Shown here piece after piece: positions 25,501-60,898 of a stretch of 64,000 bases of DNA. A program made the position numbers and the translations under genes. The stretch covers positions 25,544,001 to 25,608,000 of the forward strand of contig CM074514.1 of NCBI GenBank assembly GCA_037379345.1. Reading direction: 5' to 3'. The DNA comes from Perna viridis. Its lineage: Eukaryota. Positions within the stretch are counted from its first letter, which is position 1, and each line of letters opens with the position of its first letter. A model generated the notes under the pieces. That model worked only from the letters and a program-made list of their open reading frames with translations, had not been told where the DNA came from and did not search any database.

Positions 25501-28500
25501 AAGGGGTCAAAAAGAGTAAAATTAAATGTTTCCTTAAAACCCATGTAGAATGTTTATTTTATTCCGATTTTGATAAATCCTTTTTAATTAGCTCACGAAG
25601 GCCATGTGAGCTATTGCCATCACTTGGCGTCCGTCGTCGTCATTAACAATTTTTCAAAATTCTTCTCCTCTGAAACTACTGGACTAATCATAACCAAGCT
25701 TATTATGTTTGTTCCTTGGGGTGTCTTGCATAGAACTGATGTGGGAAAATTTGATCCGTCGAAAAACGTGGCCGCCGTTACTAAAAATAGAACAAAGGGG
25801 TCAGACAGTAGTTTTTCACATATATCTCCAAAACTGTTTTTTTTTTTTTTTACAGTTTTCAGCCAATGTCTAGAAAACTATGATAGGTTTACACTTTCAT
25901 TTGCTGAAATGATCCTTATGATAAGTCCTATCAAAGTTTTCTTAAGTCAAAATTGTTTGACAACTTCTTGTTTAATTTATTGCCCTTGAAAGACAAAATT
26001 CAACCAGGTGATGTGTTCCTTATCTAATTCTGAAAAAAAACCAGATTATCAGCAAATTTGGTGCGTTTTGGACTGTTTTCGAGTTATAAGGTTTAAAGGG
26101 GCCACAACCCAGAAAAATCGACTTTTTAGCTCACTTTGCCCAAAAGGCCATGTGAACTTTTGTCATCACTTCGGGTCCGTCGTCGTTACCGATTTTGCAA
26201 AACTCTTCTCCTCTGAAACTACTGAACTAATCAGAACCAAACTTGGTATGAATTTTCCTTAGGTTATCTTGCATAGAACTGATGTGGGGACTTTTGATCC
26301 GTCGAAAAAAAAAGACCGCAGTTACTAAAAATAGAACACGGGGCCAGACAGAAGTTTTCAGATATACCCCTAAAACCGTTATGATTAGCCAAATTCTGTC
26401 TGAATTAAAGTGTTCAGCTATTTCTCTGGTCAAGTTTTCGTTTTATTCCGTAAAGCCATGTTGGAGTCATTGCCCTTTTCGACGATTTTTTCCTGTTTTC
26501 AATGTTATTTCTTTCAAAAATATTCTCCTCTGATATTACTCGACCAGTTGGAACCAAATTTGGTATGAATGTTCCATAGAGTATTCTTTATATAACTGAT
26601 ATGGAAAATTTTGATCCATGTCGAAAAACATGGCCGTCTTTACTAAAAATAGAACAAAGAGATCAGAAGTTTTTCGCATATATCTACTAAACCATTATTT
26701 TTACCAAATTCTGACTTGGGTTAAAGTGCATATTCAGCATTATGAGATCTATCTCTGGTCAAAATTTCGTTTTATTTTATTAAGGCATGTTGGAGTCATT
26801 GTCCTTTTTCGACGTTTTTTCCCTATTTTCAATGTTTTTTTTTTGTTTTTTTTTCAAAAAATCTTGTCCTATGAAACTACCTGACCAATTAGAACTTAAC
26901 TTGGTATGACTATTTTTATAGGATCTTCTTCATAGATCTGATGTAAGGATTTTTTTTATCCGTCGAGAGAGTAATCAAAGGTACCAAGGTTATAGCGGTA
27001 ATCCAAAGAATAATCCAGGGACAAGGACCAGACATGGAAAACAGACATACACAACAAAGAACATAAAGTAACTAAAATCATACATACAAAGTAACAAAAG
27101 CAAATGAGCAACTCGGGCTCCACTCAAAACTGGGAGCATAGACCAGGTGCACCGGTAGGGTAAGCGTCCTCTGCTTTTCTAGAAACACCCACCGATTTGC
27201 TCATAAAAAGTCAAGTCCGGGGTAGACGAAAGAGGAAAGGAAAATCATGACGCGCTGAACAGATCAGTTTTCATGGCGCAGATGGATACACCGTAGCGAT
27301 CCACGAGTTCATGCTGACGACCATAAAACTTCTATAGTGATGACTTCATTCTTGTAGCAACATAATCCTGTTCCAGAAGCCTATTTGTTAGAATTCTAGC
27401 AAAAAAGTCTGCGTAGTTTCGGCAAGCTCTGGCTTAACGTATGAGCTGTGATATGAACACTCCATACGCAGGTGCTGACGGGATGTTGCCACAGATGAAA
27501 GGAAAGTTGACAATTCTGAATGGAAAGTCATTACGTTTGTCGTAAAGTTTGGTCAATAGTTTTCCTTTACCATCGGCTTCTAAATGTAGGTCAAGATATG
27601 AGGTTCACCTCACAGTGTCTGTAGTATCCTTTATCTCAAGTTCTTTGGGGTAGATGCGATATATCAAATCCCCGAATTGGGATTGTTTAAAGATAATATG
27701 TCATCTATATAGCGGAAACTGAGATTAAAAGATCTAGCTAAACGATATTTTTTCTTTCGAATCAGATCAGCCATAAAGTCAGCCTCATAAGAATGGAGGA
27801 ATAGGTCAGCAAGTAGAGGAGCACAATTTGTTCCCATTGGAATGTCGACCGTTTGTTAAAAATTCGGCCACCACACTGGACAAATATATTGTCGATTAAA
27901 AATTCCAGCATTTTGTAAACATCATCTTCTGTATATTTGGAAGATGATTTGGAATTATTTTTCACAAAGTATGAAGAATCTCTACCAAGAACTATATATT
28001 TGTATCTAGGTGTACCATCTTTTAAAAAAAAAACAACGACGTATAATGAACATAGGGGTCAGTCAGAAGTTTTTCTTATATATCATAAAACCGTTTAGCC
28101 AAATTCTTTGAAATGCTGAAATATGCTTTATATTATAAGGTCTACAAAAGTGCATTGGATCAAAGTTGTCGGACGACTCCTTGTTACCGTTATTGTTCTT
28201 GAAATGTAATTTTTTTTTACAGTTTTCAGCTAATATCTTGAAAACTTTGATGGATATAGAAATATAACTTTCAGTTAGTGAAATGATCCTCATGGTAACG
28301 CTTACAAAAGTCTGCCTGGGATCAAAGTTGCCAGAGGACTCCTGATTATCCCTTGAAAGGCGAAAAATGTTTTAGCAGTTTTCAGCCAATATCCTGAAAA
28401 GTGTGATGTATAGAAAGAACCTTTCAGTTGTTGAAATGATTCTTATGAATTTAAAATGTCGGACAACTTTTTGTTAGAGTTATTGCCCTTGAAAGGCATA

Positions 28501-29058
28501 ACTTTAACCAGGTAAGCGATTCAGGCTCTAGGGAGCCTCTTGTCAATTTGGTCTGGGTTTGATAATTTTATTTGAATTTTGCGCAAAACAGTGTTCATAT
28601 GAATTGTTAGTCCCTATATATGCTTAAGTGTGTCAAAACTAATATTGTGTTCACACATGCCCCAACTTTTCGGGGTTCGACCACTGCGAAAATTTTTACG
28701 TTCATTAAAGTTAATTTTGTTTAAAATTCGTGCTCTTTTAAGCTCACGTTCATCAAAGTTAAGAATTTGTCATTCCCTGTCCCATATGGTGCGTAAACGC
28801 TAGTTTTTGTTTTTATTAAAATTTGTTGCATTGTATTTCTCTATAAGATTTATTTTACAACTGATATGATCAATGATCAATTTATGTTCTTTTTTTAGGC
28901 CTCAGACTCATTGGGAATTTACATATGAAGACACAAAAACAGTTGCTGAGGCGGTAGTTGAAATGTTGAAACAAGGAGAAAAAGATCCATCATTGATAAA
29001 TATGTACTATAGAAGTATATTGAAAGAAAAAAAACCTCATGATGCTAGTGAACTCTGA
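22506..29058 (+). CDS. FUT11: FUT10/FUT11-type GT10 fucosyltransferase, two exons (22506-23728, 28899-29058), about 460 aa
   Basis: N-terminal TM segment, LLWWT, DLPLPRSPQHEWCLFHEESPLNN, FNHTATF, and the alpha-1,3-FucT motif YKFHLSFENAVCDDYMTEKLMRPLHVGSVPIYYG. Donor TT|gtaagt at 23729 joins in phase to ttttag|G at 28899. FUT10 versus FUT11 is not resolvable in an invertebrate; the symbol follows linkage to SEC24C. Confidence 0.9.
24230..25140 (-). mobile_element. Old, degenerate Penelope-like retroelement fragment
   Basis: Minus strand retains a decayed YDKRDNFDFPVVNFPF motif (about 25030-25075) and parallels the better copy at 26967-28040. Confidence 0.65.
25310..28690 (+). mobile_element. 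Nested cluster of Helitron/Helentron-associated non-autonomous repeats in the FUT intron
   Basis: Family A copies begin ttagctcac...ggccatgtga...gtccgtcgtcgt (25587, 26126); the second ends caggtaagcgattcaggctctagggagcctcttgt (about 28543). They interrupt a family B element whose pieces (25310-25585, 26009-26125, 28544-28690) match the copy at 57170-57775. Confidence 0.65.
26967..28040 (-). mobile_element. Penelope-like retroelement 3' fragment with frameshifted reverse transcriptase
   Basis: Minus strand reads MLEFLIDNIFVQCGG, IPMGTNCAPLLADLFLHSYEADF, SYLDL, KLYDKRNDFPFRIVNFPFICGNIPSAPAYGVFISQLIR. Its 3' non-coding end recurs at 51435-51715. Confidence 0.85.
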
Positions 29059-30061
29059 AATTGGTGAATAGATGGTTCAAAATTAGTTTAATTTTTTTTT
29101 TTTCGTATGACAACCCTAAACAAAGTCTTAATTATGACAAGTATATAAATTGCGTGAACACACTTCAGCATTAAGTATGCGTGGAATGATGGCTTGCTGA
29201 AGAGAGATAAACTAACACATTCCGCTTCGTATTAAGAGAAGAAAAAAAAATAACCAATGACAATCAAAAAGGGACAAGGCTGGATTATGAAGGATTTTTG
29301 GCTTTTTTTAGTTTGTTTATGCTATTTTAAGATGACTGTATGTCCTCATGTTGTTTTGTTACATTGTAAATTTTGAATCATTGATATGAAATCCTTCTAA
29401 CTTTTTAATGATTGTCTCAATGTCTGTATACTTTTTGATGAAAATTTGATTTTTGTATCTAAGTTCTTGAAACTTCGGTGGATTTTTTATTGTGCACAAC
29501 GTATATTGAGAAGACGCCTTATTGTATGTTTTGGAAGTCGTTTAAACTTTACAGTTGATAGTTATGATGATCTCAGTGTCTGCATACTTTTTGTTCAAGA
29601 TATACGGCTGCTGTTTAGTTTACTCCAATGCGACGGCAGGTGTATCAAGTGCTAATGACACACATGATTAGTTACTACTATTAAAATGAGACATAATGCA
29701 CCTTTAATGTGATAAAGTAAGGTCTGAAATTATTGAAGAGAACCACTTATTTATTTTCGGTTGGTCTTAAATGCATCAGTTTTTTTTCTCTCAGACATTT
29801 CAAGTACATAAATGAGCTTAACGGGTTTAATCAAATTTCTTTATTTTTTCAATCAAACAATGTATGTTATTTGCAGTTATGTATTGTTTTTATTTGTGGA
29901 TATGTATTTCAAAAATGCACGATCATTTACTTGTATATACAAATGTGATTTATACTTATCACTATTATCAACCCTAATTTTATAAAAATATACAATTCTG
30001 TTTTCTTGCACATTTTTTGTGTCCTGTATAACTCTGGCATTTCATTTAACGATGAAGACTC

Positions 30062-30205
30062 AGTAGTATCAAAAGGCCGATTCTGCCGCACTTGCCATTT
30101 TCAAGGGGAAATCCTGCATAGGGCCCCCAACCCCGACGGCCAAATGCAAACGGACGGCATTCCTATTGAGCATAGGGTAAATACGAGAATTATGTCTTTC
30201 GTACA
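30062..30205 (+). repeat. Polinton left terminal inverted repeat
   Basis: Reverse complement of 43083-43226 apart from 5 substitutions. Confidence 0.95.
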
Positions 30206-33200
30206 AAGCATAAGTCAGATCGCCCCAGAGGATAGTGGGGATGTGGATAAGGACACCTTAAAGGGAAGGATGTCACAGATTGATACAAATAAAAATATGA
30301 CATCCGAAAGAAATATGATGGATTTCTTTCGGGAGAATGAAAAAGATTTGGAGGATAGCACCCCAACTCCGCAAAGGCAGCAGCAGTGCTGCAATGCCCC
30401 CAACCTGACGCAGGTGGATGAACACACCACGCAGTGTCAAAATTGTGGTGCAGAGGTGATGAAGCTGCGATTTGAGCATCAACCAGGGGAGCAGAAGACC
30501 ACCTGCGGCGTCGAACTCAAGAGGAAGAAGGGGTAGTTCTGCAAGAGCAAGCCCGGGAAGGATGGTCTCTGCTGGAGACATAGCAGGCAACCACGTCAGC
30601 AGGAGGAGGAGGTTATCCCAGTCGAGGGTAAGATGGTGGTGAAAGAGACCATGAAGACACTCCGTCAAATAGCTAAGGACGAGGGTCTGAGGGGGGCCAG
30701 TAGGAAGAACAAGGAGGCCTTGGTGAAGCTCATCGAGGAAAAAACCACCCGTAGATTTGAACGCCAGAAAGTCTTCAGCAAGAAGCAGCTCAAAGCGCTA
30801 GCAAAGAATCGTGGTCTCACCAAGTACTCCCAGCTCAAGAGAGACGATCTGCTCCAGCTGGTTGAAGAGAACATCAAAAACGCCCCAGCTGAGGATGAGA
30901 TGAAGATCTCGTCGATAGACGGCAAGCTCTGAACTGTGTATTTGGGTCTCACTAACCACTTCTAACGTTTCCATTACTTTACATGTTAAAAAAGTAATTT
31001 TCAAAGTCTGTGAATTCCCAGGACAAATGACATCTTAAAGTTCATACCATTGTGAAGCTTGGAAAGTAAGGCTTCCAAAATCATTATGCTAATGGTACGA
31101 TGATAGTAGAAATTCTTCACAAAATTTACTTGAATAAATAATACTGAAAATCCACATTTTTACCTGTTCTGCTAACTGACAGCATGGAGGCAAATTACTC
31201 ACACATGTAAACAATATTCATACACTTTTGTAGTTAATTACATATATGATTTTAAAGTACACATTCTTAGCTTTATTTTGACTACTTTTAATCATAATAC
31301 ACACAAATAATGCACTTACAATGCATAAGTCTAGGTTCAGTGTGTTTTTGGTACTACATTGGGGGATGGCCATTTGACCTGGAAGTGGTTAGTGAGACCT
31401 TGGCACGGTCGTCATCGAACCCGCGAAGCAGCACGACGTGGCCACTTTTCTGAAGGTAAGTCGGAGCACCGTCACCACAACCATCGCAGATGGGCTTGTC
31501 CAAAAGCAGGGATTGAAGGTGATCTTGGTGCTTCTAGTGGAGATGGTGAAGACCAACCCCGCGACTGGGGAAAATACCTACGTCACCCCCTACTTTCGAT
31601 CAACCCTCAATACCCTCACACAGTCATCCGACCTCGAATTGGAAATCGACTTCATGATGGGGAAGATCAGGGTAAGTATGGCAAAGTACATGCGCGATGG
31701 GAGTGGATGGACGTTCGGACGCATCGAGAGGCTAGAAATCTACCTCAACCAATTCAAGCCGCTCAAGTGGGGTTCCTTCATTCCGACTCCATCAGCACTC
31801 GCGAAAAAGAAGGCGATCGTCAACGTGAAAAATGAAGATGATCGCTGCTTCCAGTGGGCGGTGCTGGCAGCCCTACATCATGAAGAAGTCAATCAGAAAT
31901 CAGCCAACCTCAGTTTGTATCTCAGTACAAACCATGGACAGGGGAGCTCAACTTCGACGGCATCGATTTCCCAGTCTCTCACCGGGCGATCGACAAATTT
32001 GAGAGGCAGAATCCCACCATCAACGTCAACGTCTATGGGTTTAATGGGGTGAAGAAGGGTGAGGATGGTGAATAGGATCTCCAGGTTTACCCACTCAAGA
32101 TATCCAAGAATACGGGTCCCACCCACGTAGATCTTCTCTCCCTGACTAGCGAAGATAAGCAGCATTACTGCTGGATCAAGAGCCTCTCACGACTCTTGAG
32201 CTCCAAAATCTCAGAGCATGGTCACAAGCTCTTCTGCCGCAGATGCCTTTCCCACTTTTCCAGGCAGGACATCTTGGACGAGCACATGGAGTATTGCACC
32301 CAGAAAGAGGCGGTCAGGATCGAGATGCCGGAAGAAGGAGCCACCATAACCTTCCATAACCTCAAGAAGATGATGAGAGTCCCCTTCGCGATATACGCGG
32401 ATTTCGAGTGCTTCACAGAGAAGCTCAACACCTGTCAGCCGGATCCATCACACTCCTACACGAAGGCCTATCAACTGCAGCGACCCTCGGGTTTCTGCTA
32501 TTACGTGAAATACGCTCACGGCGACTACAAAGATCCAGTCGTCTACTGCGGGGAGGATGCGGCCAAGAAATTTGTGCAATGCGTAGAGGAAGAAGTGTGC
32601 CCCATCTCCAAACTATACAAGGAGAATAAGCCCGTGGAGATGACCGACGACGATAAGGCGAGCTTCGAAGCAAGCACGCACTGCCACATCTGTGGCAATG
32701 CATTGAGAGGGGATAAGGTCCGGGATCACGACCATCTCACCGGGAAATATCGCGGCGCAGCGCACAACCAGTGCAATCTGGATTTCCAGCTTCCGAAGCA
32801 CGTCCCCATCTTCTTCCACAATTTGAGCGTATACGATGCTCATATCTTCGTCAAGGAGCTTGGCCACACCGAGGGTAAGATCAACTGCATCCCTAATACC
32901 GACGAGAAGTATATCAGCTTCTCCAAGCAGGTGGACGATCTGGAGATGAGCTTCGTCGATTCGTGCAGGTTTATGCTCAACAGCCTGGATACCTTAGCTA
33001 AGAATCTCACCCCGACCAATTCGCGACCGTGAAGGCGAGATTCGGCGATCGCCACGAGCTAATGATTCGGAAGGGGGTATTTCCCTACGATTATATGGAT
33101 GGACCGACCAAGCTGGAAGAGACTCAGCTCCCAACCAAAGAAGCCTTCTTCAGTACGCTCTCCGGAGAGCATATCAGTGATGAGGATTACGCACACGCTC

Positions 33201-34747
33201 AGAGGGTCTGGGAGAACTTCGGGTGCAAAAACATACGCGATTATCACGGCCTCTATCTCGAGACTGACGTGCTGCTGCTGACTGGCATCTTTGAGGATTT
33301 CTGGGATATCTGCTTGACCCACTACGGACTCGATCCCGCCCACTACTTCACATCCCCCGGGCTATCCTACGACGCCGCCCTCAAAACCACGGAGGTGAGA
33401 TTGGAGCTGCTCTCCGATCCGGACATGTTGATGATGTTCGAGAGGGCAACCAGAGGGGGTGTCGCCATGATCTCCCACCGCTACGGCAAGGCCAACAACC
33501 CCTACATGACCACGTACGACGCCTCCCAGCCCACCAAGTATCTGACCTACCTCGACGCAAACAATTTCTACGGGTGGGCGATGGCGCAGTCCCTTCCAAT
33601 GGGGGACTTTGAGTGGATGGAGCCGGAGGAGATCGAGAAGATCCTGGAATATCCCGACGACCACGAGTACGGCGCCATTGTGGAATGCGATCTGGAATAT
33701 CCTCAAGATCTTCACGACGCCCACAAAGACTACCCTCTCGCGCCCGAGAACGTGGAGGTCGGCAAAGTGCACAAGCTCGTGCCTCACCTGGACAAGCGTG
33801 AGAAATATACCCTTCACTATCGAAATCTCAAGATGTATCTGGAGAGGGGGATGAAGCTCACCAAAGTCCATCGCATCATCGGATTCAGCCAATCTCCATG
33901 GCTCAAGAAATACATCGATCTGAATACCACTCTTCGCGCCCGGGCCAAGACCGACTTCAAGCTCATGAATAATTCGGTCATCGGCAAGACCATAGAGAAT
34001 ATCCGGAAGCGCGTCGACGTCAGGCTGGTCACCACCGAGAAGCAGGCCCTGAAGCTAGTGGTCAAGCCCAACTTCGATCGTCGCGTCGTCTTCACCGAGA
34101 ATCTAGCAGCCGTTCATATGAAGAAGACCAAGCTGAAGTTTGATAAGCCCGTCTACCTGGGAGCGTGCATATTGGACATCTCGAAGCTCCTTATGTACGA
34201 CTTCCACTACGGATTCGTGAAGGAGATGTACGGTGATCGTGCCCGACTACTTTTCACCGACACCGATAGCGTGGCCTATGAGATCCAGACCGCCGACTTC
34301 TACAAGGATATCGCACCGCACATGCAGGAAAAATTCGATACGTCCCACTACCCGGCCGAGTATCCCTCCAACATCCCCACCGGCGTGAATAAGAAGGTCA
34401 TCGGGATGTTCAAGGACGAATGTGGTGGTAAGATCATGACCGAATTCGTGGGGCTCTGGGCGAAGCTATACGCCTTCAAGATGGATGACGGTCAGACCAC
34501 CAAGAAGGCGAAGGGAGTCACAAAGAGCGTCATCAAGCGTAGCATCGCCTTCGAGGATTACAAGCGATGCCTTGAGACTCAGCAGGAGATCCACCGACCG
34601 ATAAGCATCCTTCGCAGCCATCTCCATCAGATCTACGGCGAGGAGATCAACAAGATCGCTCTCTCAGCCAAGGACAATAAGCGCCACATCCTTCCCGACG
34701 GCATCAGCTTCCTCGCCCACGGACACTATCGAATCACTCACGGGTGA
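30192..34747 (+). pseudogene. Protein-primed family B DNA polymerase with long N-terminal extension, disrupted
   Basis: Exonuclease motifs IYADFE and FHNL; EndoVII-like HCHICG...RDHDHLTGKYRGAAHNQCNL; RKGVFPYDY; polymerase motifs YLDANNFYGWAM, KLMNNSVIG, FTDTDS. The N-terminal part carries Zn fingers and two Rho-N/HEH-like repeats; that it belongs to the same gene is inferred. Lesions: TAG at 30534, TGA at 30930, MITE at 30945-31399, frameshifts near 31900 and 33020. Confidence 0.93.
30945..31399. mobile_element. AT-rich MITE inserted in the Polinton polymerase gene
   Basis: Perfect 18-bp TIR GGTCTCACTAACCACTTC / GAAGTGGTTAGTGAGACC; TTG on both sides (30942-30944, 31400-31402) as a likely 3-bp TSD. 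Confidence 0.88.
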
Positions 34748-34749
34748 GG

Positions 34750-34917
34750 ATGCCCATCCCATACGAGATGGTCGACTATCTGCGGCCGGAAATTCGATAT
34801 AATACCGATGAGCTCCAGCGGAGCGGCGACGTGGTCTGCGGACACTTTAGCCTGCACGTCCTGAAGATCTTATCGGAAGGTCGGACGCTTGAGGAGATCG
34901 TCTCGGACTATAGATAA
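34750..34917 (+). pseudogene. C-terminal half of an adenain-like maturation cysteine protease
   Basis: Below the ORF-track cutoff. Translates MPIPYEMVDYLRPEIRYNTDELQRSGDVVCGHFSLHVLKILSEG...DYR*, with the Q-x6-CG catalytic-Cys motif. The upstream His (HW) and YFDS motifs are absent. Confidence 0.75.
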
Positions 34918-35346
34918 ATGGATAAGTTTGGATCTCAATCGAGAAAGCGCATGCCCGTCTGGCGGATGCTTCAGGGTCTCAATATGAACGATAATCGGAT
35001 CACTAGCCTCGGTTTGCCCCGATACAGCTCAGACGCCGTGACGAAGCGATGGGTCAGCCAACAATTGGAAGACAGCATGAAAGACATCGATGAGCTAGAT
35101 TCGGAGATTAAGCAGATGCAAAAGGAGTATGACGCATCGATCAAAGACCTGACCAAAAAGCTGATGGCCAAAGTCGATAAGTCAGACAGCGGCAAGGTGA
35201 ATTCGGATCTAGACATGCAAAAATATCACCTGCTAAATCTCCCACTCCCCCGGACTGATAACGAGCCCATCACAAAAGCACTTTACGACGGCTTGAAAGA
35301 GGATCTAGACGCATTAAGGCTCTTCGTCGAACTGAAGCATGCGTAA
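34918..35346 (+). CDS. Polinton protein with two trimeric-fibre neck-like motifs and a coiled coil
   Basis: LNMNDNRITSLGLPRYSSDAVTKRWV and LDMQKYHLLNLPLPRTDNEPITKALYD flank a heptad-rich segment; preceded by TATAGATAAATG. Confidence 0.7.
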   Translation: MDKFGSQSRKRMPVWRMLQGLNMNDNRITSLGLPRYSSDAVTKRWVSQQLEDSMKDIDELDSEIKQMQKEYDASIKDLTKKLMAKVDKSDSGKVNSDLDMQKYHLLNLPLPRTDNEPITKALYDGLKEDLDALRLFVELKHA

Positions 35347-35353
35347 ATCAAGA

Positions 35354-35385
35354 CTTTCTGGTCTCCTTTGATCGAGACCGGAAAG
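35354..35385. terminator. Hairpin between the convergent fibre-like and integrase genes
   Basis: CTTTCTGGTCTC-(8 nt)-GAGACCGGAAAG, 12-bp stem with one G.T pair, in the 50-bp gap between the two stop codons. Terminator role is inferred. Confidence 0.5.
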
Positions 35386-35396
35386 CCTGCTGGGGA

Positions 35397-36323
35397 TCAT
35401 TGCAAGTCGGACTCCTTGATCCAGGAATTGAATTCTTTGGGGTAGCCTCTCCACTTGACGCAGATTTCCTTCGTCCCTCCTCGGGTACGCCGGCGCAAGA
35501 CTTTCTCGATGCGATATATATCCTGGTCGGTGTGCTGGAGCTAGGGCTCATAAAAGGATCCCTTGATTTCCTCACCCTCATAGTCTTTGAGGCGATAGGT
35601 GGGCGGCTGCATCGCTAGGGTCTGGGCGATGGTGAGACTTCCTCCGTCCAGCGCGGAGTATATCCCTTCTCGAAGATGCCCTTCTTCCTGGTGATCTGGA
35701 CCTTATCGCCGACGTTGAATCGCTGAGGCTGCATGGGTGGGAGGTCTCCGTAGAGATTCCAGAAGAACTTTGACTCGTGCTCTTTCTGGCTGGCGGCGGT
35801 AGGTGTCATCTTGATGGATTGATGCTTTGTGGGATTATACTGGCGGGCGAGATCGTCCAGGACGGGAAGGTAGGCCCGCGTGTAATTGGCCGAGAAGTAT
35901 TTGAACATCTTTTCCTTCATGGTACGATTGCAGCGCTTCAACACGCTCGATTTTTCCTCGTTCTCGGTGGAGTAGAGATCGACGTCGTGCTTCCAGAGCA
36001 GATCCTTCCTCATGATTGTAAAATTCTGTGCCCTTATCGGTCCATAGCTTCTCGGGCGTGCTATCCTTGAAGACGGTCCGGAAGGCATCTCGTATCGTGG
36101 CGCCTTTCTTATCCTTGAGCGGTACCAACCAGCCGTACTTAGAAAAGACGTCGATGATGCTCAGGAGATACTAGAAACCTCGGTTATCGCGGGTGAAGGC
36201 GCTCATATCCACGAGATCGGCAGCCCAGGTCTCATCCACCCCACCTACCACCACACGACGCTTCTGAAATTTGCGTCGGACTGGCTTATGCAGCTCTTCG
36301 GCTAGTTCGTCCGACCATTGTAC
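35397..36323 (-). pseudogene. Retroviral-type (rve) integrase with C-terminal chromodomain, disrupted
   Basis: WSDELAEELHKPVRRKFQKRR, ETWAADLVDM, IDVFSKYGW, LWTDKGTEFYN, EEKSSVLKRCNRT (expected catalytic E is K), FEKGYTPRWTEE, chromodomain VKWRGYPKEFNSWI. In-frame TAG at 36171-36173 and frameshifts. Confidence 0.93.
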
Positions 36324-36815
36324 TTTTTTTCTGCACTCCCAGCCCAAATCGTGCTTTGGTGCCGATGATGGACTTGACGATGCTGCGGTCCATGCGCTCC
36401 CGGACGGTGGGATTGGGAATGGCGTCCAGTGAGGCTAGCATAGCCTTATCGCAGATGGAATTGCGAGCGGCAGTATCCTTATGCTTGGCGTAGCAGAGAT
36501 CGTGCCGATAGGGGGCCTGATCCACCCGATTAATGGGCTTCGACCAAACCTTGGGGGTGCCATCTGCATTTAAACGCTTATGGAGCTGGGTGCCCGGCCC
36601 TGTAAAATTATGCCCCGGCAGATGCACCTCCACGGGCAGATGGTTGACCATCTTATTTACGAGCCCCGCACCCTCGCTCCCTCGGAGGAACTGAGACTTC
36701 CTAGCCCCGCATACGGCGCATAGCCCACCCTTCGCCGCCTCCCATTGCTGGTGGTGGTCTCATAGCGACTTTCTGTCTCGGTCGGCCGCTTGCACTTCAA
36801 GCAATACATTCCCAT
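36286..36815 (-). pseudogene. Zn-ribbon plus parvovirus-VP1u-like phospholipase A2 domain (PLA2X-type) protein
   Basis: ATG at 36815: MGMYCLKCKRPTET...; after one frameshift near 36720, CAVCGARKSQFL...HLPGHNFTGPGT (Ca-loop-like)...PINRVDQAPYRHDLCY (catalytic HD). Confidence 0.85.
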
Positions 36816-36828
36816 TTTATATAGATAA

Positions 36829-37589
36829 ATGGACGTTGAAGACCTTACCTACGATGAACCCACCGCGAGTCGTCAGCATAACCACTTTCTCCTCCCGCAG
36901 CGATCCATCCGAAGTCTGATCATCGGGAAGTCGGACTGTGGCAAGACGACGCTGCTGAATAACCTCCTCCTTGGCAATGGATGGCTCGACAACGATCGCC
37001 TCAACGTCGTCGGAAAATCCACCAGCCCATCTATCATCTGCTGTGGCAGGCGCTGGGAAAGGGGTTTTCGAAAGACGATATCCGCGACTTTCTCTCCATT
37101 AAGGATCGCTACCCCCACTCTTTGATTGACGTGGTGCAGATAATGAAGCCGTCGACTAAGCGTAGCGGTATAGAACTTTTCTTCTTTGAGCAGGCGAGCG
37201 ATGTGCCGGATCCTCGAGAGCTCGATCCCACCCGCAAGAACCTCATGGTCTTCGACGACTTGATGCTGAGCAAGCAGAGCAAGTGCGAAGACTACTACGT
37301 TCGCGGTCGTCATAATAACGTGGACTGCTTCTACCTCTGCCAAAATTACTTGAAGCTCCCGCGGCAATCGATCCGGGAGAATGCCAACTTCATCTGCCTC
37401 TTCGAGCAGGATGCTAAGAATCGCGATCATATCTGCCGGGACCATTGCGGTGATCTCACACTGGCTCAATTCGATGCCCTATGCGATCACTGCTGGTCCA
37501 AGCCTCACGGATTCCTGACCATCGATCTCACGAGCCCCAAGACGGCGGGAAAATATCGATGCAATTTAGATGAATTCTATCGAGTCTAA
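36829..37589 (+). pseudogene. A32/FtsK-like DNA packaging ATPase, one frameshift near 37020
   Basis: Walker A IIGKSDCGKTT, Walker B LMVFDD, RGRHNNV, RENANF. Confidence 0.92.
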
Positions 37590-37597
37590 GATAAAGA

Positions 37598-38212
37598 ATG
37601 GATCACTTGAAGGAATTTTTCCTGGAGAATCAACGGGACTTGGATTGGGAAAATGTCCCAGAGCCCCCACGACCATCCCCTGAATGCAAGCACCAGTGGG
37701 AGCGTGTGCTTATTTACGGCGATATCCCAGGGTATGGCTGCAGTGAATGCGGAGCTGAAAGGTACGGTCGCCGCTTCGATAATCAGGATTTCGAAGGAAG
37801 GACCTATAATTTCCAGCCCTCCCGCAAACTTGAGCAACCGCCCGAACCCCAGTGCTGCATCAAGACCGTCCGTGGCCATCAGTGCACGTATCCCTCTATA
37901 AGAGGTAATGATAAGTGCAAGAGGCATTTGAATATATGCTATAGGTGCTGTGTTAAGATTTCCCGCCGCAAAGCCTGGTATCGTAACCACGAGGGGACTA
38001 TACACGGACCCAAATTCATCCCCCTCTGGCCGTCGGCCGTTAAAGTCCGAATATCGGGGGAGTACGTAAAAAGATTCCGCAAACTATTCTGTTCACCCGA
38101 GTGCTGCATGGGTAGCTTCCTCAACGCTGGCAGGCAATATTTAGACGATAAGTGGCGATGGGTTGAACGCTATGGGGCGATGGGAGGCGATGGGACGATG
38201 GTGAAGCTATAA
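37598..38212 (+). CDS. Intact Cys-rich multi-zinc-finger protein (Zn ribbon, CCCH finger, CxxC...FCSxxC domain)
   Basis: CKH...CSECG; C-IKTVRGHQC...CKRH; CYRC...FCSPEC. 204-aa ORF packed between the ATPase and the next gene. Confidence 0.75.
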   Translation: MDHLKEFFLENQRDLDWENVPEPPRPSPECKHQWERVLIYGDIPGYGCSECGAERYGRRFDNQDFEGRTYNFQPSRKLEQPPEPQCCIKTVRGHQCTYPSIRGNDKCKRHLNICYRCCVKISRRKAWYRNHEGTIHGPKFIPLWPSAVKVRISGEYVKRFRKLFCSPECCMGSFLNAGRQYLDDKWRWVERYGAMGGDGTMVKL

Positions 38213-38216
38213 ATAA

Positions 38217-39074
38217 ATGACGTTTATCAAGATCACCGATCCCAAGCAGCGTGAGGCGCTTGCTAGGGACTTGCAGGAGACCAAGCGTAGCATCCAGGCT
38301 AGCGATATGCAGCGTCGCCTAGATAAGATCTGATTCAGCCGCGATCTCTCCAAGATATTCAAGCCCGTGGTCGAGACGCAAAAGGAGACCGCCTCCCAGA
38401 TCACCAAAAAGATTGATGATATCCCACTCGCTCTACCCGCCCCGGTACCTGCCCTTTCCCCTCCTACCTCTACCGCTGAGGACGACTACGACCCACTAGC
38501 TATCGAGCAAGAATTGAAAACCAACCTAGGTCCGCGAGCGACGCACTATCTTCAGCTCAGTATGACTCCACAGGCCGACCATACTTTCGGATTGCGAGTA
38601 GAAGACGGCTCCATCATGATCGGGAGTCTGCCTGTCACCTTCGATGGAGACGATATCTACATCGATGCCGAGCGCTATAAGGGTACCCCCGGCCTGTGGG
38701 AGCTTACGGTCCTGAAGCATCCCAAAGATATCGACGAGGACTTGCATAACTATGGTGATATTCTACAAGCATCGGGTGCCATGTATCAAGGAAACTCCGT
38801 CCTATCGCGGACCTCCAAGGCCAGCAAAAGCCGGAAATGGAAGGAGATCGTCTCGTACCTCTATAAGCAAGATAAGCATGGGAGTGGGGTATCGACCGTC
38901 TTCCTTCCCACATGCTTCGACCAATTGCTGGATCGTCTCGATCTTTGCGCTGTCGCCTACCAGGCTGGAAATAATGGGTTGCGCAACAAAATCGTGGCGA
39001 TCCTCGACGTCATGAGGAAGTCCGGTCATATCAGCAGGGATGAGTACGAGAAGCTGCATCGGAAGCTCCTCTAA
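38217..39074 (+). pseudogene. Conserved Polinton protein of unknown function; premature TGA at 38331
   Basis: Starts at TATAAATAAATG (MTFIKITDPKQR). Motifs KIFKPV, DHTFGL, YKGTPGLWEL, GSG..FLP...LLDRL...AGNNG resemble a widespread Polinton family from recall. Confidence 0.75.
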
Positions 39075-39085
39075 ATAAATTTACA

Positions 39086-39406
39086 ATGCCTTTAGTAGTG
39101 AATCACGGTTATCGCCGGAGATATGCCGTCAGCGGACGAGGCCTTTTCGATACCATCGCCAATCTTGCCAAGACGTTGGGTAGCAAGGCATTGAGTGCCG
39201 CTTCCAATGCAGCTCTGAAAGGTGTGGAGAAAGGTGCGATCAAGGCCGTTGACCACGTCGTCCGTCGAGTTACTCGCAAGAAAAATGCTCCCCAAGCACC
39301 ATCCTCCAAGGTCAAGAGGACCTCACAGCAGCAGGTCCGTCTCAATAATCTCATCTCGAGTGGGGGCATCGCCACCATCCATGACTTCGTCCAGCGCTAT
39401 AGATGA
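39086..39406 (+). CDS. Small basic core/virion protein
   Basis: Arg/Lys-rich 106 aa with SGRGLF and SGG motifs, immediately upstream of the MCP. Confidence 0.7.
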   Translation: MPLVVNHGYRRRYAVSGRGLFDTIANLAKTLGSKALSAASNAALKGVEKGAIKAVDHVVRRVTRKKNAPQAPSSKVKRTSQQQVRLNNLISSGGIATIHDFVQRYR

Positions 39407-39410
39407 ATAT

Positions 39411-40670
39411 ATGATGGCTGATATGCTCACTATCACCGAAGGATTGACTTTCGACGAAAGTCTCCAGGAAAATCAGGTTCACGAATACGAACCTCAAGCC
39501 GGGGCGCAGCTGAATAATGCCAGTGCAGAGATACACATCAATATCGAGACTCAAGATCTCTTCCTCCACCCCGCCGAAAGCTATCTCTTGATCGGAGGCC
39601 GACTTCAGAAGAACGATGGCACCGCGTATGCCGACGGTGATCGCTCGTCCATAACGGCGCCATGTATCTATTTCGTAGCATCAGCTACCGACTTTCCGGG
39701 CAGCAGATCGAGCACCTCAACGATCCCGGCGTTGCCACCACCATGCTGGGTATGCTGACGTACCCCGACGACTTCTCCAAATCGCAAGGCCTCAACCAGC
39801 TATGGTTCAAAGACTCCACGGCCGATGCCGAGGCAGATAACGTTGGATTCACAGCACGCCACAGATATATCATCACCAAGCCAGTCAATAAGGGATCCTT
39901 TTCTTTCGCCATCCCGCTCAAGCACGTCTTTGGCTTTGCCGAGGACTACGATAAGATCGTCTACGGACTCAAGCACGAGCTTTCCCTGGTGCGAGGTTCG
40001 GATGCCAATGCGATCCTCCGAGCCGCCAAAGTAGTCTTGAGCAAGATTTCCTGGTTCGTCCCCCACGTCATCCCCTCCGACGAAAAGAAGCTGCGGCTCT
40101 ATAAGACCATCCAGAGCAAGACCAAGATCGATTGCGGATTTTGCATGAGGCAGTGCGACTCCATCGCCGTGTCCCAGACCTCGCAATTTCATTGGCGTCT
40201 AGCCGCTAAAAGCGGACGAGAAAAACCGCGATGGATCGTCGTCGCCTTCCAGACGGATAGGAGCAATGATCAGACGCACAATCCGCCGTCTTTGACCACT
40301 GCCGATTGCGAAATATCCACGTGACCCTCAATGCGGAGCGCTATCCCGCCGTGGATTTCAATGCCGGCTTCACCCATTGCAGGGTGGCCAGGGTCTATAA
40401 GGAGGACGCCGAATTCCGCAAGTTCTACACCATGAAAGTCTGCTGAGCAATGGTGGTATCAATCCCTCCGGCTTCATCGATCTCTATCCCCTATTCGTCA
40501 TCGACGTCAGCCATCAGTCCGAGCGGTTGAAAGAGTCGACGGTGGATATCCAGATCCGAGCCGATTTCGAGGGGAACGTCCCGGCTAATACCCAAGCCTT
40601 CGCCCTGGTCATCTCCGATCGAATCCTCCAATTCGAATCCGACGGTCAGAAGATGAGCGTCGTCTTCTGA
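39411..40670 (+). pseudogene. Double-jelly-roll major capsid protein, frameshifted
   Basis: DESLQENQVHEYEP, FLHPAESYLL, IPLKHVFGFAEDYDKIVYGLKHELSL, EKPRWIVVAFQT, LNAERYP, PLFVIDVSHQ. Frameshifts near 39650, 40290 and 40430. Confidence 0.92.
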
Positions 40671-40684
40671 GGAGGGATAGATAA

Positions 40685-41454
40685 ATGGACGCTTCACTTT
40701 TGCGGAAAATCGCCACCAATACCGAACCCAAGCATGGGTTCTCCTTCATCGTCTCTGGGAACGATAGCCAGATCTTGACCCGCTTCAATCCACCCCTCCA
40801 ATTGCGCGAGGAGAAATCTTACGAGATGACCCTAGTGAATCTGAAGACCTACTACTCCATCCCCAATATTCATGCAGGTAATAATTCCTTCCGCTACTCT
40901 CCCGATGGCGGGGCTAACTGGTTTTCCGTCGAGCTGAGCACCGGCTCTTACTGCATCGACGATATCAACGATGAGATCCAGCGGCAACTGCGGCTGCATA
41001 GGCACAAGGCTAAGGTCCTTCTCGATGCCAATCGTGCGACGCTGAGAGCAACCCTCACCCTCGCCAGAAATTATCGAGTGGATTTCGACGTGCCCAATAG
41101 CATCAGTACGGTGCTTGGATTCGAGCGCCGGACGTATACCTACGACCGAAGCACCAACGGCTACGCGGAGGGTGAGAATATCGTCAATATCATCAGCATC
41201 AATAGCATCCTGGTGAATAGCGATATCATCCACGGAAGCTACGTCAACGGCACGCAGCAGTCCACCATCTATAGCTTCTTTCCCGCTGTCGATCCGGGTA
41301 TGAAGATCATCCAGACCCCCAAGAATCTCGTCTACTTACCCTGACCCTGAGGACCATCGACCGCATGCAGACGTATCTGACCGATCAAGACGGCCGCCCC
41401 ATCGATCTGCGAGGAGAGAATCTCACCATCCGCTTCCATCTGCGCGAGGTATAA
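40685..41454 (+). pseudogene. Minor capsid (penton) protein, frameshift near 41341
   Basis: FNPPLQL, YYSIPNI, GSY.IDDIN, LGF, NSILVNSDIIHGSYVNG, IYSFFP, NLVYLP; shifted tail LTDQDGRPIDLRGENLTIRFHL. Confidence 0.9.
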
Positions 41455-41458
41455 ATAA

Positions 41459-42036
41459 ATGGATTATCAAGAGTACGGTCTCAACTTGACGAAAGGTCAG
41501 GCGGAGAAGATCCAGCGTGCGGCAAAGAAGGGTTGCCCCGTGAGCGTCCGATTGCTGCATGCAAACCTATCCGGTGAGCATAAGATGCTCCTCACTCACC
41601 GCCAGATCCAGCGCATCACCAAGCTCTTGCAGAGTGGGAAGGGTGGTATGGTCTTGGAGATGAGCCCGAAGCAGGTGAGGCATAATGTGCGGAAAGAAGG
41701 TGGATTCCTCCCCATGCTAGCAGGTCTTGCCTCTGCTGCGCTACCCATGCTGGCCAAAACCGTGCTACCTGCTTTGGGCGTGGGTGCATTGAGCGGTTTG
41801 GGTAGTGCAGCCATCCAGAAGGCTGTGGGATCCGGATTATATCTCAAGAAGGGTGGGAAAATATGCTGCGTGAAACCTCGTGGTCGTGGTCTGTATTTGA
41901 GTCCAGGCATTTTGCCCAATACATACGGTGATGGGCTATACTTGAAGAGCGGACGTCAGATCTACGATGGAAGTGGACTGATCCTTGGTCCCAATAGCCC
42001 TTCAAAAGCATCCCCATCTTGGGCATGCTCCTCTAG
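41459..42036 (+). CDS. Basic core protein with an adenovirus pX-like GGFL motif and GxGLYL repeats; tail frameshifted
   Basis: LLTHRQIQRI, KEGGFLPMLAGLA, GSGLYL/GRGLYL/GDGLYL/GSGLIL. The likely original end PNSPFKSIPILGMLL* (TAG 42034-42036) is out of frame by one base. Confidence 0.75.
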
Positions 42037-42046
42037 ATATAGATAA

Positions 42047-42568
42047 ATGGACGACGTAGACTCGGGGAAGCAATCCTACGGAGAAGCTAGAATCGAGTCG
42101 ATCGAGAAAGAGCTTGAATCCGAAAAGCATAAGTATGCTCGACTGTCGAGGAACTATAAACGAGTGGAAAAAGCGGTGTCTTTTGCTCTGGGTACCTGTG
42201 CAGTACTCAACGTAGTTTGCACCACTGGCACACTCAGCACCGCCGCAACGGGAATAGGCGCCGTGGCATGCATTCCGTTGAGCTCACTAACCGTCGTGAA
42301 TTCAATCACGATGGCGGGGTTGGCGGTGCTAGCCAAGCGCATCCGCCAAAAGCGTAAAAAGCATAAAGATACCGTGCGCATCGTCAGATCCTACCAATCC
42401 AAGATCGAAGATGCAGTGAGCAAAGGCCTGGAGGATGATGATATCGATGAATCTGAATTTGCAGGGGTTGTAAAATGTCTTAGCTTCTACTACGACGAAA
42501 AGCAGCAGCTGCGAAAACCTTCCACGGCCACCACTTTTAGTGAAGACCTTACTGCGCATGCGCCATAG
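42047..42568 (+). CDS. Polinton membrane protein with a central hydrophobic hairpin
   Basis: Coiled coil, long hydrophobic Ala/Gly/Thr segment, then KKH and VSKGLEDDDIDESEF; preceded by TATAGATAAATG. Confidence 0.75.
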   Translation: MDDVDSGKQSYGEARIESIEKELESEKHKYARLSRNYKRVEKAVSFALGTCAVLNVVCTTGTLSTAATGIGAVACIPLSSLTVVNSITMAGLAVLAKRIRQKRKKHKDTVRIVRSYQSKIEDAVSKGLEDDDIDESEFAGVVKCLSFYYDEKQQLRKPSTATTFSEDLTAHAP

Positions 42569-42667
42569 GGAGGATTCTTCCAACGCTCGCCTCGCTCGGC
42601 TACGCCTCGCTCCCCACGCTTATTCCAGAATCCTCCAGATCAAAGTTCCAAGTGACCAAAAAAAAAA

Positions 42668-42703
42668 AAATTTCCCAATCCAGTAATTTGGATTGGGAAA
42701 TTT
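42668..42703. terminator. Perfect 15-bp-stem hairpin between the convergent right-end genes
   Basis: AAATTTCCCAATCCA-gtaatt-TGGATTGGGAAATTT. Terminator role is inferred. Confidence 0.55.
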
Positions 42704-42739
42704 CGAACCCCTTACCCATAGCCTTCGATTATTTTTTTA

Positions 42740-43096
42740 TTACTTCCTCACCAGGTCATAGGAGAGGTACTGCTGCTGAGATTTCTTGCTCACCTTGAAT
42801 CCAGTGCTCTGAACGAAAGCTCCTTGCAAAGGACCCTTCTCTTTGTTGAGCGTGGGGCAGGCCTATATCCTGGTGGTCTCTCTGTCCCGATCCTTCAGGG
42901 TGAGGATACTACTTTTGCCGAATTTTCCATCCACTTCTACCACCTCCAAGATCTTATAGATCACACCGGTTGGAAAGTCCTTCCATTTGAGTGCTTCCTG
43001 ATTCTGATCCTGCAGCTTCTCCTGGAAGGCGTCTTCGCTGATGAAGCCATCCCCATCTGTGGGAATGTCAACGAATCCATTGTGTACGAAAGTCAT
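42740..43096 (-). pseudogene. Small beta-rich putative OB-fold/ssDNA-binding protein, 118 codons, internal TAG
   Basis: MTFVH...KWKDFPTGVIYKILEVVEVDGKFGKSSILTL...RI*ACPTL...FVQSTGFKVSKKSQQQYLSYDLVRK*. The frame continues through TAG at 42863-42865 (probably TGG); AATAAA overlaps the final stop. Confidence 0.65.
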
Positions 43097-43226
43097 AATT
43101 CTCGTATTTACCCTATGCTCAATAGGAATGCCGTCCGTTTGCATTTGGCCGTCGGGGTTGGGGGTTCTATGCAGGATTTTCCCTTGAAAATGGTAAGTGC
43201 GGCAGAATCGGCCTTTTGATACTACT
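43083..43226 (-). repeat. Polinton right terminal inverted repeat
   Basis: Ends ...GATACTACT followed by the TSD AGACTC. Confidence 0.95.
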
Positions 43227-44386
43227 AGACTCCGTCTTGCATGATATTTTATGACCCATATGTCTGGGATTTCATGAAATGTATTATTTTGTATCTAGCT
43301 ATCCTCTTAAATTCGATCTTGATCTATGCATATAGTGTATCAAAAACTTATATTGTGTCCACACTTGCCTCAAGTATACATAGTTCAACAGGCTGCGTCG
43401 TATCATGCAGGAATCGGCGAAGCTTTTTATTTCAAATATACACTGATGTATATTGATGTAAACTTCCTGTAAAAAATGACTTTCGTCATGAATTAGGGGT
43501 TTCAGTATTGGTATACGATCTTCCAAATTATGCTTCTTGTTGGAACATTTTTTTTTGGGGGGGGGTGGGATTACGGCCTGTTGGGGTAATGTTTTCAATC
43601 ACCCTTAGTAAATCATCTGATACTGAATTTTTTTAAAATTAAATAGTAAAATAATAATGTCTTGTCACTATTTTATGTTAGATTGCATTTAAAGTGAAAA
43701 CATTCATACATTTGTCCAAAAAATATAGACCATTTCTGTTTTTCAAAAAGTGCAATATGTTATCAGTTACACAACTGCATAAGGGGGAGATAATCACGTA
43801 CATTATTATTATTGTAATTTAGATTTGTTTACTAACAGTAAGTTTTGATATATTAGGTTCTTTAGAAATATTATTATCATTTTACATTAATATCAAATAT
43901 ACAGTTTACAAAATTTGTGAAAAGAGCAAAACAATTTTAAAAAGTAAAATTATATATTTTTGTGTTCCAACGTTGAAGAAACATTTTGCAACTGACTAGT
44001 TTACATATTTTTTTTCTTTATTACCCGATTCTTTGATATTGAAGAATAGTGTGTATATTCGTGGATCATAGTAGCAAATAAATTATATACCTATGAAGTG
44101 CAACTCAACTTGTCACTTAAAAGGGCAATGTAACACAATAATTTGCTTGCGTATGTCTTGATCTACTTTCTTGTTTTACCTTTTTGAAATGACATGTAAG
44201 TGTGTTTTTTTTCATGACGAATGATATGAAGACTGTCATAACGTTTTTGTTACTCAAGAGGTTTTGACGTTGATTCAATGTTGGTTCGCCGTAACAAAAC
44301 TCTCAAGTACAAATAACATTTACAGACAAGTTCTTAAAGAGAAACGTGAAATACATTGGCTATTCTGAATATAGTAGGGCCAACGT

Positions 44387-59394: not shown

Positions 59395-60898
59395 TAGAAC
59401 AATTAGTCCAAATGGAGTTCAGTTTGAACAGGTTCCATTGTTTAAAAATTCATCTGAAGAGTTCAAGATTGAGTAAATCATTCAGTGCATAAAAAAACAC
59501 AGGAAAAATACATAAGCTCGAGTGGTCGGCTCTCTGAAGAGAAAACTCGACATAAATATACTTACATCACACACATTGGTCAAAGAAAATCTTAACAAAA
59601 TATGTCTTTTACCAATATTTATTATTTATAAGTAAAGTGGCTATGTCTAATGACAGAGCTTGCTTATTATCATGTATTCAATGGCAGAAGAAAAGGTTGG
59701 ATTTCCCACGTTAACATTTAGTCCTCTATTTAATACCAATTCGATAAATCATTCATATGGGATTTAATGTACACTTCATTATTTCCTGAAATAGATCATG
59801 TCTTCTTTTTTTTTCAGCGAGTCTTTTTCAGTCTCAAATTGTATTTTTTTTCATGTCGTAACTATTGATTTATATATAAAAAGATTAATGAACATGATAA
59901 TGTGTTTGTAAAGCAAGTGAAATTTACTTTGATATTGATTATTAGAAGCCTGTATTCTCATGTTACTCAGGCTGTTATTGATAACACCTTTCAAATTTTA
60001 GTACAGGTACGCCTAAGAACCTTGCAAGTAGAGAAAAAAAGGTGACATGTCAAAAAGCTTTGTCAACTTCCATCATAACATTAAATCTTCTCAAAAGCAT
60101 CATTTTTTTTTCTAAAATTGCCAATGAAAGTTGTATCTTACATGTATGTTGGGTAAGTAATGGAATTACTTTAAACATTTTAGTTACATTTATCTAAAAA
60201 AAACTTTTCCCACTATTTTTTTCGATACAGATTACTATATAACCAGACAAATTTTTTCCTTCTTTTTCCCAATCTCCGTCTTTACTATTTTTTGTTTTAA
60301 AAGGACAAATGGGAAATACTGGATACAATTACACTATTAGGAAAATTATGGACTGCATGATTTTTAGGGGAACTTATACTTAAATTCCATGAACAGCATT
60401 GGTATATGTTATTTGCCACTTAGCATAGAAATCTTCAAACTTTAATTTGGTATCAATATTTTTTTTTGTTTATCTCAATATCATAGCTTTGGTTGTTATG
60501 AATTTATAATGAATATATATAGGTTCATAGAAATTGATTCTAATGAGTTAGTTCTTAAATGGTTCTTCAGTTCTCATTCCATCAGTAATACCATTTTCTC
60601 CAAAAGACATCACATCAATTTATTCTATTATTTATTACATGTATTGCCATGCAACAACATTTTTTTTAAAGCATATAACTATGATATAATGCCTATGCCA
60701 CACTGGTTTTAATATGGTTTTACATGCGTGATACCATTTGGAACTAAAGAACCAATTCAAATTTAAAAAAATTAAGAATTTGCAGTACAAATGACTTATA
60801 TGATCATTACAACTCTAAATTTTAACTGTATAACAATCTATGTGGTTTAATATTCATCAATGACCCTAACTTTTAACCTACAATTTTTCCTTCCTTTT

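Follow-up and report, generated by a model that had tools for sequence, protein, structure and literature searches.

The 64,000-nucleotide stretch of the Perna viridis genome studied here (assembly GCA_037379345.1, contig CM074514.1, positions 25,544,001 to 25,608,000; referred to as the window) contains a Maverick/Polinton element, most genes of which start at a common short sequence motif. The element is a decayed provirus at positions 30062-43226, visible as a GC-rich island (52% GC, 13,165 bp) within host DNA of ~30% GC. It ends in terminal inverted repeats (TIRs) of 144 nt, which are 97% identical to each other, and is flanked by a 6-bp target-site duplication (TSD) consisting of identical 6-mers at 30056-30061 and 43227-43232. 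A Pfam search of its coding content revealed a protein-primed, B-type DNA polymerase (pPolB), an integrase of the rve type, a PLA2 domain, an ATPase of the A32 type and a double jelly-roll (DJR) capsid protein. The polymerase (PF03175) and the capsid (PF21738) scored above the cut-off, the integrase fragment matched rve below it (E 1e-4), and Pox_A32 was matched with E 2e-4. The features used to recognize Mavericks/Polintons are present: TIRs with a 6-bp TSD, pPolB with rve, and a DJR capsid with an A32 ATPase. The minor capsid and protease genes gave no Pfam hit; the former is labelled by gene order, and the remnant at 34750..34917 is what we take to be a protease, from gene order and catalytic-type residues. 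Most genes of this copy are broken, the putative protease gene has lost its 5′ part, and a host repeat has inserted at 30945-31400. Other copies are plentiful: a DNA search of the genome with the capsid stretch gave 44 matches (83-100% nucleotide identity), further-off capsid subfamilies share about 56-71% protein identity, and the named homologues come from Mytilus.

An original prediction, made from the letters of the window, had described a poxvirus-late-like initiator in front of the structural and morphogenesis genes. All sites listed there (34909, 36820, 42038, 38208, 41450 and 40676, with variants before 37598, 39086 and, at 39398, the capsid gene) were recovered, and two more had been missed, one on the minus strand (36823-36816) and one in frame within pPolB (30286-30299). 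In the core of the element (11.2 kb, 53% GC), TATARATAAATG occurs five times in exact form against 0.0 expected and a maximum of 0 in 300 Markov simulations, and ATARATAAATG six times against 0.007 expected. Bare TAAATG is weakly enriched (7 versus 2.2 expected, simulation maximum 7), and since it is barely enriched by itself, the signal resides in the longer word. One extra exact match, at 46451, lies outside the Polinton in AT-rich host DNA. The proposal that the ATG of the motif is the start codon holds for the six sites with an ATG inside; elsewhere the ATG follows 1-7 nt further on. The capsid-site variant TATAGATGAAT had been taken for a form of the motif, but it is decay, because 19 of 20 other copies read TAGATAAA. 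Three frames of this copy end in YR*; only the one preceding the capsid gene does so in other copies, the YR* ends at 34917 and 42046 being frameshift products of this copy. The weight placed on stop overlap is unsupported.

Table 1. Features of the Polinton in the window (motif frequencies refer to homologous starts in the copies compared)
Feature	Position	Strand	Remarks
Left TIR	30062..30205	+	144 nt; long pPolB frame opens in it; TAAAT at 30178, without TA[AGT]ATAAA
pPolB gene	30144..34747	+	PF03175, Rho_N; broken by frameshifts, stops and host insertion
In-frame motif before internal pPolB ATG	30286..30299	+	CAAATAAA in window, TAAATAAA in other copies; exact in 5/8 loci
High-copy host repeat in pPolB 5′ part	30945..31400	.	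not in other copies
Putative maturation protease, 3′ remnant	34750..34917	+	own motif site missing along with 5′ part
Motif TATAGATAAATG before ORF 34918	34909..34920	+	exact in 15/17 loci
Open reading frame (ORF) 34918	start 34918	+	coiled-coil, 142 aa
Hairpin between convergent ORF 34918 and integrase	35354..35385	.	other subfamily: same place, different sequence
PLA2-domain/retroviral-type integrase gene(s)	35348..36815	-	PF08398, rve; frameshifted in window
Motif TATATAAAATG before PLA2-integrase gene	36813..36823	-	overlaps plus-strand motif; exact in 18/19 loci
Motif TATAGATAAATG before A32 ATPase	36820..36831	+	exact in 21/25 loci
A32 packaging ATPase	36829-37589	+	frameshifted
Variant TAAGATAAAGAATG before ORF 37598	37587..37600	+	TAAA kept, T four bases upstream lost
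ORF 37598	37598..38212	+	orphan Cys/His-rich protein
Motif TATAAATAAATG before ORF 38217-39074	38208..38219	+	exact in 22/27 loci; TAAAATG in one subfamily
ORF 38217-39074	38217-39074	+	conserved, unnamed
Motif TAAATAAA before ORF 39086	39072..39088	+	ATG 7 nt behind; exact in 25/28 loci
ORF 39086	start 39086	+	basic protein
Decayed motif before major capsid gene	39398..39416	+	exact in 28/32 loci
DJR major capsid gene	39411-40670	+	PF21738; broken
Motif GATAGATAAATG before putative minor capsid gene	40676..40687	+	exact in 26/29 loci
Putative minor capsid gene	40685-41454	+	label by gene order, no Pfam hit
Motif TATAAATAAATG before ORF 41459	41450..41461	+	exact in 29/32 loci
ORF 41459	start 41459	+	one relative gives weak adenovirus pX hit
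Motif TATAGATAAATG before ORF 42047	42038..42049	+	exact in 29/31 loci
ORF 42047	start 42047	+	hydrophobic, 173 aa
15-bp hairpin, then T run on minus strand	42658..42703	.	between convergent ORF 42047 and OB-fold ORF
TIR-initiated (OB-fold) ORF	42745..43096	-	about 118 aa in other copies; motif 0/20
Right TIR	43083..43226	-	97% to left TIR; OB-fold ORF opens in it

For a motif count across copies, gene starts in the window and 37 other loci (L032, L033 and L050 were left out because of their flanks) were defined through protein homology, independently of the motif, which was then sought within 20 nt. The unit persisting across subfamilies with differing flanks is TA[AGT]ATAAA, with the ATG overlapping its last A or following up to about 7 nt behind. 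This exact 8-mer stands at 233 of 296 starts or, leaving aside ORF 37598 (0/30), at 233 of 266 starts in 11 gene classes; as the copies are related and some loci are halves of one copy, the starts do not count as independent events. Conversely, 226 of its 239 occurrences in GC-rich element DNA fall at homology-defined starts, and 11 of the remaining 13 are, by eye, starts that the search had missed. The exact motif is present in most copies in 11 of 13 gene-start classes, the exceptions being ORF 37598 and the TIR ORF. As predicted, it also precedes the protease start that the window has lost (15/18 loci), and in subfamilies of about 60-70% capsid identity it is retained at homologous starts while the adjoining bases have changed. 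The orientation of the motif, its conservation and its closeness to the gene start are borne out. The supposed dedicated late programme for structural genes is not supported: the motif is not confined to virion genes, since the PLA2-integrase frame (18/19) and the in-frame pPolB ATG (5/8) carry it, and the exact form is lacking only at ORF 37598 and at the two frames that open in a TIR, the OB-fold ORF and the long pPolB frame. One motif ahead of most genes is a feature of virophages. More distant relatives were collected by capsid alignment, giving 82 loci (80 taken from 423 relatives in metagenomes, plus two on viral contigs) with 50-60% capsid identity and the same gene set; a single-protein scan of the viral contigs had given no match, whereas the alignment scan found the two loci.

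The geometry of the starts restricts what the motif can be. In the A32 ATPase, the Walker A motif occupies residues ~33-40 and the next in-frame methionine is residue 106 (L020) or 134 (L036); because Walker A precedes that methionine, the ATG of the motif must be used and the RNA must start at or before it. The N-termini directly behind the motif are conserved as far as the distant relatives. A TATA box for RNA polymerase II (Pol II) lies 25-30 nt upstream of the RNA start, whereas the motif is 0-7 nt from the required ATG. We therefore agree with the original prediction that the motif is not an ordinary TATA box. A variant box, bound by host TBP or by a viral mimic of it, with RNA starting 25-30 nt downstream, is likewise highly improbable: the forms TATATAAA and TATAAATA match the TATA consensus, but the common form TAGATAAA is not a TATA box, and the resulting RNAs would lack their ATG, costing the ATPase its Walker A motif and other proteins their conserved N-termini. 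No PF00352 (TBP) hit was found in the Polinton ORFs, and the genome-wide TBP matches are two intron-split host loci only, away from the listed capsid matches. Forkhead sites, GATA sites and trans-splice acceptors were also considered and do not fit the variable third base and the last base of the motif.

The same geometry bears on a post-transcriptional function, namely a signal for translation initiation or termination-reinitiation on a polycistronic Pol II RNA started in the TIR, or a combined stop/poly(A)/start cassette. An upstream stop does lie in or just ahead of the motif at most sites, the A-form of the motif contains AATAAA, RNA-like contigs cross motif sites, and A-rich bases ahead of the ATG are common in invertebrates. 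However, the divergent PLA2-integrase and ATPase genes each carry their own oriented copy, with 13 nt between the two ATGs and neither a gene nor a stop upstream, so the general role of the motif is not that of a poly(A) or stop-start signal. Among 39 host-genome sites (chosen by the motif, which makes its invariance among them true by construction), the base that makes AATAAA is replaced by G or T in 18. Furthermore, the position of the stop within the motif varies, as does the distance to the ATG (0-7 nt, with non-A bases at -3), and convergent gene 3′ ends are free of the motif. The contigs in question, assembled from seven putative-RNA runs, cover the Polinton thinly; those bridging motif sites show deletions that broken copies have, and could stem from DNA or from read-through of host transcription. 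We consider this explanation improbable.

In the window, three hairpins of at least 11 pairs were detected versus 0.27 expected, two of them at the two convergent gene junctions, and the tandem-gene junctions have none. Other subfamilies possess hairpins of changed sequence at the same convergent junctions. In distant relatives (18 of the 82 loci), 16 of 20 hairpins fall at the 3′ ends of core genes, which make up 9.4% of the span, and a hairpin is present in 16 of 139 3′ windows versus 0.2 after shuffling. TAAA at gene starts and hairpins at convergent ends make up a gene punctuation of the type found in large DNA viruses, in line with the original prediction. The clearest case of the hairpin rule is a distant relative (L132) with hairpins after six genes, which also encodes a DUF2738 protein (988-1755, E 1e-21). 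Two other structures were seen in the window. An 11-pair hairpin lies right behind the internal pPolB ATG (30304-30332), and another stem-loop, imperfect and containing GCCTCGCTC repeats, directly follows ORF 42047 (42580-42640) and is kept in most near-subfamily copies.

The distant relatives also allowed the promoter region to be compared outside the mussel family. The set consisted of 132 full-length starts from 43 loci, out of 198 de-duplicated starts, leaving out short fragments, the integrase and cluster C15. TAAA is found within 14 nt of the ATG in 113 of the 132 (shuffled mean 54.6, maximum 71), including both pPolB starts (2/2), and in the unfiltered set at 137 of 198 starts versus 62 of 760 internal methionines; the strict 8-mer is present in 30 of the 132. 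When aligned on TAAA, these starts have an A frequency of 0.53-0.65 between -21 and -15 and a T frequency climbing to 0.47-0.57 between -14 and -9, while GC peaks at -7 in a GC-tolerant spacer; the AT content of the upstream core is 0.84. Vaccinia intermediate promoters are composed of an AT-rich core, a spacer and TAAA, and late ones have T at -10 (PMC11980589); TAAA is read directly by the vaccinia polymerase (PMC12917281). The distant relatives show the bipartite layout of vaccinia intermediate promoters; in the mussel family, the AT-rich core that these relatives have upstream is lost.

Based on these observations, we think it probable that TA[AGT]ATAAA serves as a transcription initiator and is read, not by the enzyme of the animal, but by the RNA polymerase that a large cytoplasmic DNA virus (Nucleocytoviricota) supplies during co-infection, which would make the Polinton an animal counterpart of the virophages. 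RNA would start inside the AAA run of the motif, and slippage would extend the near-zero leader to a 5′ poly(A) leader, as happens in vaccinia; the hairpins would set the 3′ ends, as they do in mimivirus and Sputnik. The two motif-less replication frames that open in the TIRs, encoding the long pPolB and the OB-fold protein, may be read first, possibly by nuclear host Pol II, and the provirus would then be freed. No RNA polymerase gene was found in the Polinton. Given the loss of the AT-rich core in the mussel family, the helper virus is probably not vaccinia-like in its promoter rules. The original prediction had left open a helper polymerase or an element-encoded factor driving late genes; of this, we retain the helper polymerase.

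Several points weigh against a helper-read initiator. The motif is not poxvirus-late in the strict sense: TAAAT is present at 31 and TAAATG at 28 of the 39 host-genome sites (the others read TAAAA, TAAAG or TAAAC), but T at -10, which in vaccinia late promoters lies within a T-rich upstream element, occurs in only 11, and the register of the ATG is variable. Nor does this family follow the vaccinia intermediate rule of an AT-rich core, as AT is 0.49 between -27 and -14. No counterpart to a rigid 8-mer that lacks an upstream element was seen among the promoter types compared (poxvirus, asfarvirus, mimivirus and CroV). The distant loci are AT-rich and partly redundant (many come from a few samples), and TAAA also occurs in 61 of 132 windows at -27 to -14, so part of the TAAA signal is compositional. 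TAAA initiators and hairpin 3′ ends belong to different virus orders, and a nuclear provirus meets a cytoplasmic polymerase only after a first step that is so far hypothetical. Since the A-form contains AATAAA, a second role in 3′ processing is possible. Among the contig matches listed, there is neither a cluster of starts nor an A-run loose end at a motif site. Neither a 5′ end of a transcript nor a poly(A) leader was detected; assembled contigs cannot show transcript starts. Finally, searches for traces of a helper virus with PF04947, PF04451 and PF03295 (VLTF3, large-DNA-virus capsid and A1) gave no match in the genome, with the controls silent too.

Two proteins of the element were considered as transcription factors. 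The TIR-initiated ORF likely encodes an OB-fold protein binding single-stranded DNA in replication, judging from weak matches (best E 1e-4 to viral models and 0.014 to PDB) and a model with pLDDT 65. As its only matches are weak OB-fold ones, it was rejected as a TBP. In near subfamilies, the pPolB frame and the OB-fold frame share an N-terminal peptide, which is encoded once in each TIR; the one left TIR seen from the distant subfamily (L031) has neither the shared-peptide frame nor TAAAT. The second candidate, ORF 37598, likely encodes several small zinc fingers. It has 14 relatives among 50% cluster representatives, the named ones solely from Mytilus, and could not be matched to any transcription factor by family, solved structure or fold (model pTM 0.24). 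A VLTF2/A1-like factor, suggested by a resemblance of its FCSxxC end, was rejected for want of Pfam, PDB-sequence or fold support. In sum, no element-encoded factor as envisaged in the original prediction emerged from these searches. Another orphan, of 211 aa, was noticed in the distant locus L131 (1583-2218, minus strand), with relatives in two other loci; the same locus contains fibre-like ORFs at 14228-15915, one with an F5/8 carbohydrate-binding domain.

ORF 37598 is nevertheless central to an alternative in which the motif is an initiator for host Pol II (or for a helper polymerase) made specific by a DNA-binding protein of the element, most plausibly the product of this ORF, giving the element its own early-to-late switch that would not depend on the promoter rules of a helper. 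The ORF and the rigid core-less 8-mer are found together: it was not detected in any of the 82 distant loci, among them 14 in which the genes on both sides of it are present. Its own start carries the exact motif in 0 of 30 cases, and in 19 of 30 within one mismatch; all 22 sites with TAAA have A or C instead of T four bases upstream (two more lack TAAA), as expected for a gene that is on before the switch, and the TIR-initiated replication frames are likewise free of the motif. This co-occurrence is a lead and nothing more, as one clade amounts to a single event and not a correlation. Moreover, relatives without ORF 37598 still have TAAA at the ATG, and the TAAA initiator therefore predates it. 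For Pol II, it would be unusual to make transcripts that have a leader of 0-7 nt and end at hairpins lacking AATAAA. Together with the missing resemblance of ORF 37598 to any transcription factor, this makes the alternative unlikely in our view, if less so than a post-transcriptional signal.

Some further observations concern the coding content and surroundings of the element. In some copies (L025:2024-3163 and L021:2770-3561, both minus strand), the PLA2 domain and the integrase share one open frame, which suggests a PLA2-integrase fusion, perhaps one that is packaged. The distant relatives encode PLA2 in an ORF of its own. The ~455-bp host repeat inserted in pPolB shows a depth in the thousands and many differing flanks in sequence runs. 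Elsewhere in the window, a dispersed host repeat family is present at both 25560-28550 and 60880-62000, and a minus-strand tandem-repeat ORF rich in Pro, Gly and Met at 18700-19400.

Among known systems, the element resembles the Mavericks/Polintons (Polintoviricetes), including adintoviruses with a PLA2-type virion module, in its TIRs starting AGTAGT, 6-bp TSD, pPolB, rve, A32, DJR capsid and PLA2; the account of adintoviruses contains no promoter analysis (PMC8502044), whereas an element-wide start motif and 3′ hairpins are seen here. Sputnik and mavirus carry a helper promoter before most genes as well as hairpin signals: the helper late promoter lies upstream of all mavirus and 12 Sputnik genes, and a hairpin signal follows 16 Sputnik genes (PMC6723459). 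Like these virophages, the Polinton has one putative promoter type ahead of structural and replication genes, gene-end hairpins and no RNA polymerase, and, like mavirus, has its own pPolB and integrase. It differs in its animal host, its Polinton-type capsid and a TAAA-type motif instead of TCTA or the mimivirus late motif, and its dependence on a helper is putative. With vaccinia late (TAAAT-G) and intermediate promoters (PMC11980589, PMC12917281, PMC5294985) it shares TAAA(T) at or just before the ATG, the distant relatives matching the intermediate layout; unlike them, the host-genome family has a fixed TA[AGT]A ahead of TAAA. The late initiator TATA of African swine fever virus (PMC7458399) is similarly TA-rich and associated with very short leaders, the 5′ half of our motif frequently reads TATA, and one hairpin is followed by a T run; here, however, the leading TA is optional and TAAA is not, and no upstream late motif was seen. 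Polinton-like viruses in entomopoxvirus occlusion bodies (PMC11296320) and Gezel-14T/PgVV (10.1101/2022.07.28.501842) are also small integrating double-stranded DNA viruses associated with a large DNA virus; in the case of the former, the host is an animal. The main text on the former contains no promoter or motif analysis, and PgVV uses the early AAAATTGA motif of its helper, in an alga (10.1101/2022.07.28.501842). In the literature searched, outside of which lay subscription papers and supplements, we found no report of such a motif in an animal Maverick. Helper-read promoters are already known from virophages; new here are probable promoters of this kind, in two dialects, in animal Mavericks.

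It is an open question if animal Mavericks/Polintons live autonomously or depend on a helper, and virions have not been observed (10.64898/2026.06.19.733378); in bivalves, most endogenous viral DNA consists of Polinton-related regions (10.1101/2025.04.19.649669). At its most far-reaching, and we regard this as a long shot, the animal Mavericks of this entire clade would be virophages of unrecognized animal Nucleocytoviricota, and the mussel branch would have fused the two-part promoter of its helper into one box read by ORF 37598, thereby capturing the helper polymerase. ORF 37598 would then be a parasite-encoded specificity factor for the polymerase of another virus. If the genes are wired for a large-virus polymerase, as we favour, the 8-mer offers a handle, as it predicts the RNA start sites and the late or intermediate promoter type expected in the helper, and the Polinton copies, which number in the dozens in each mussel genome, might act as a latent response to a large DNA virus of mussels or as its parasite, comparable to endogenous mavirus in a protist.

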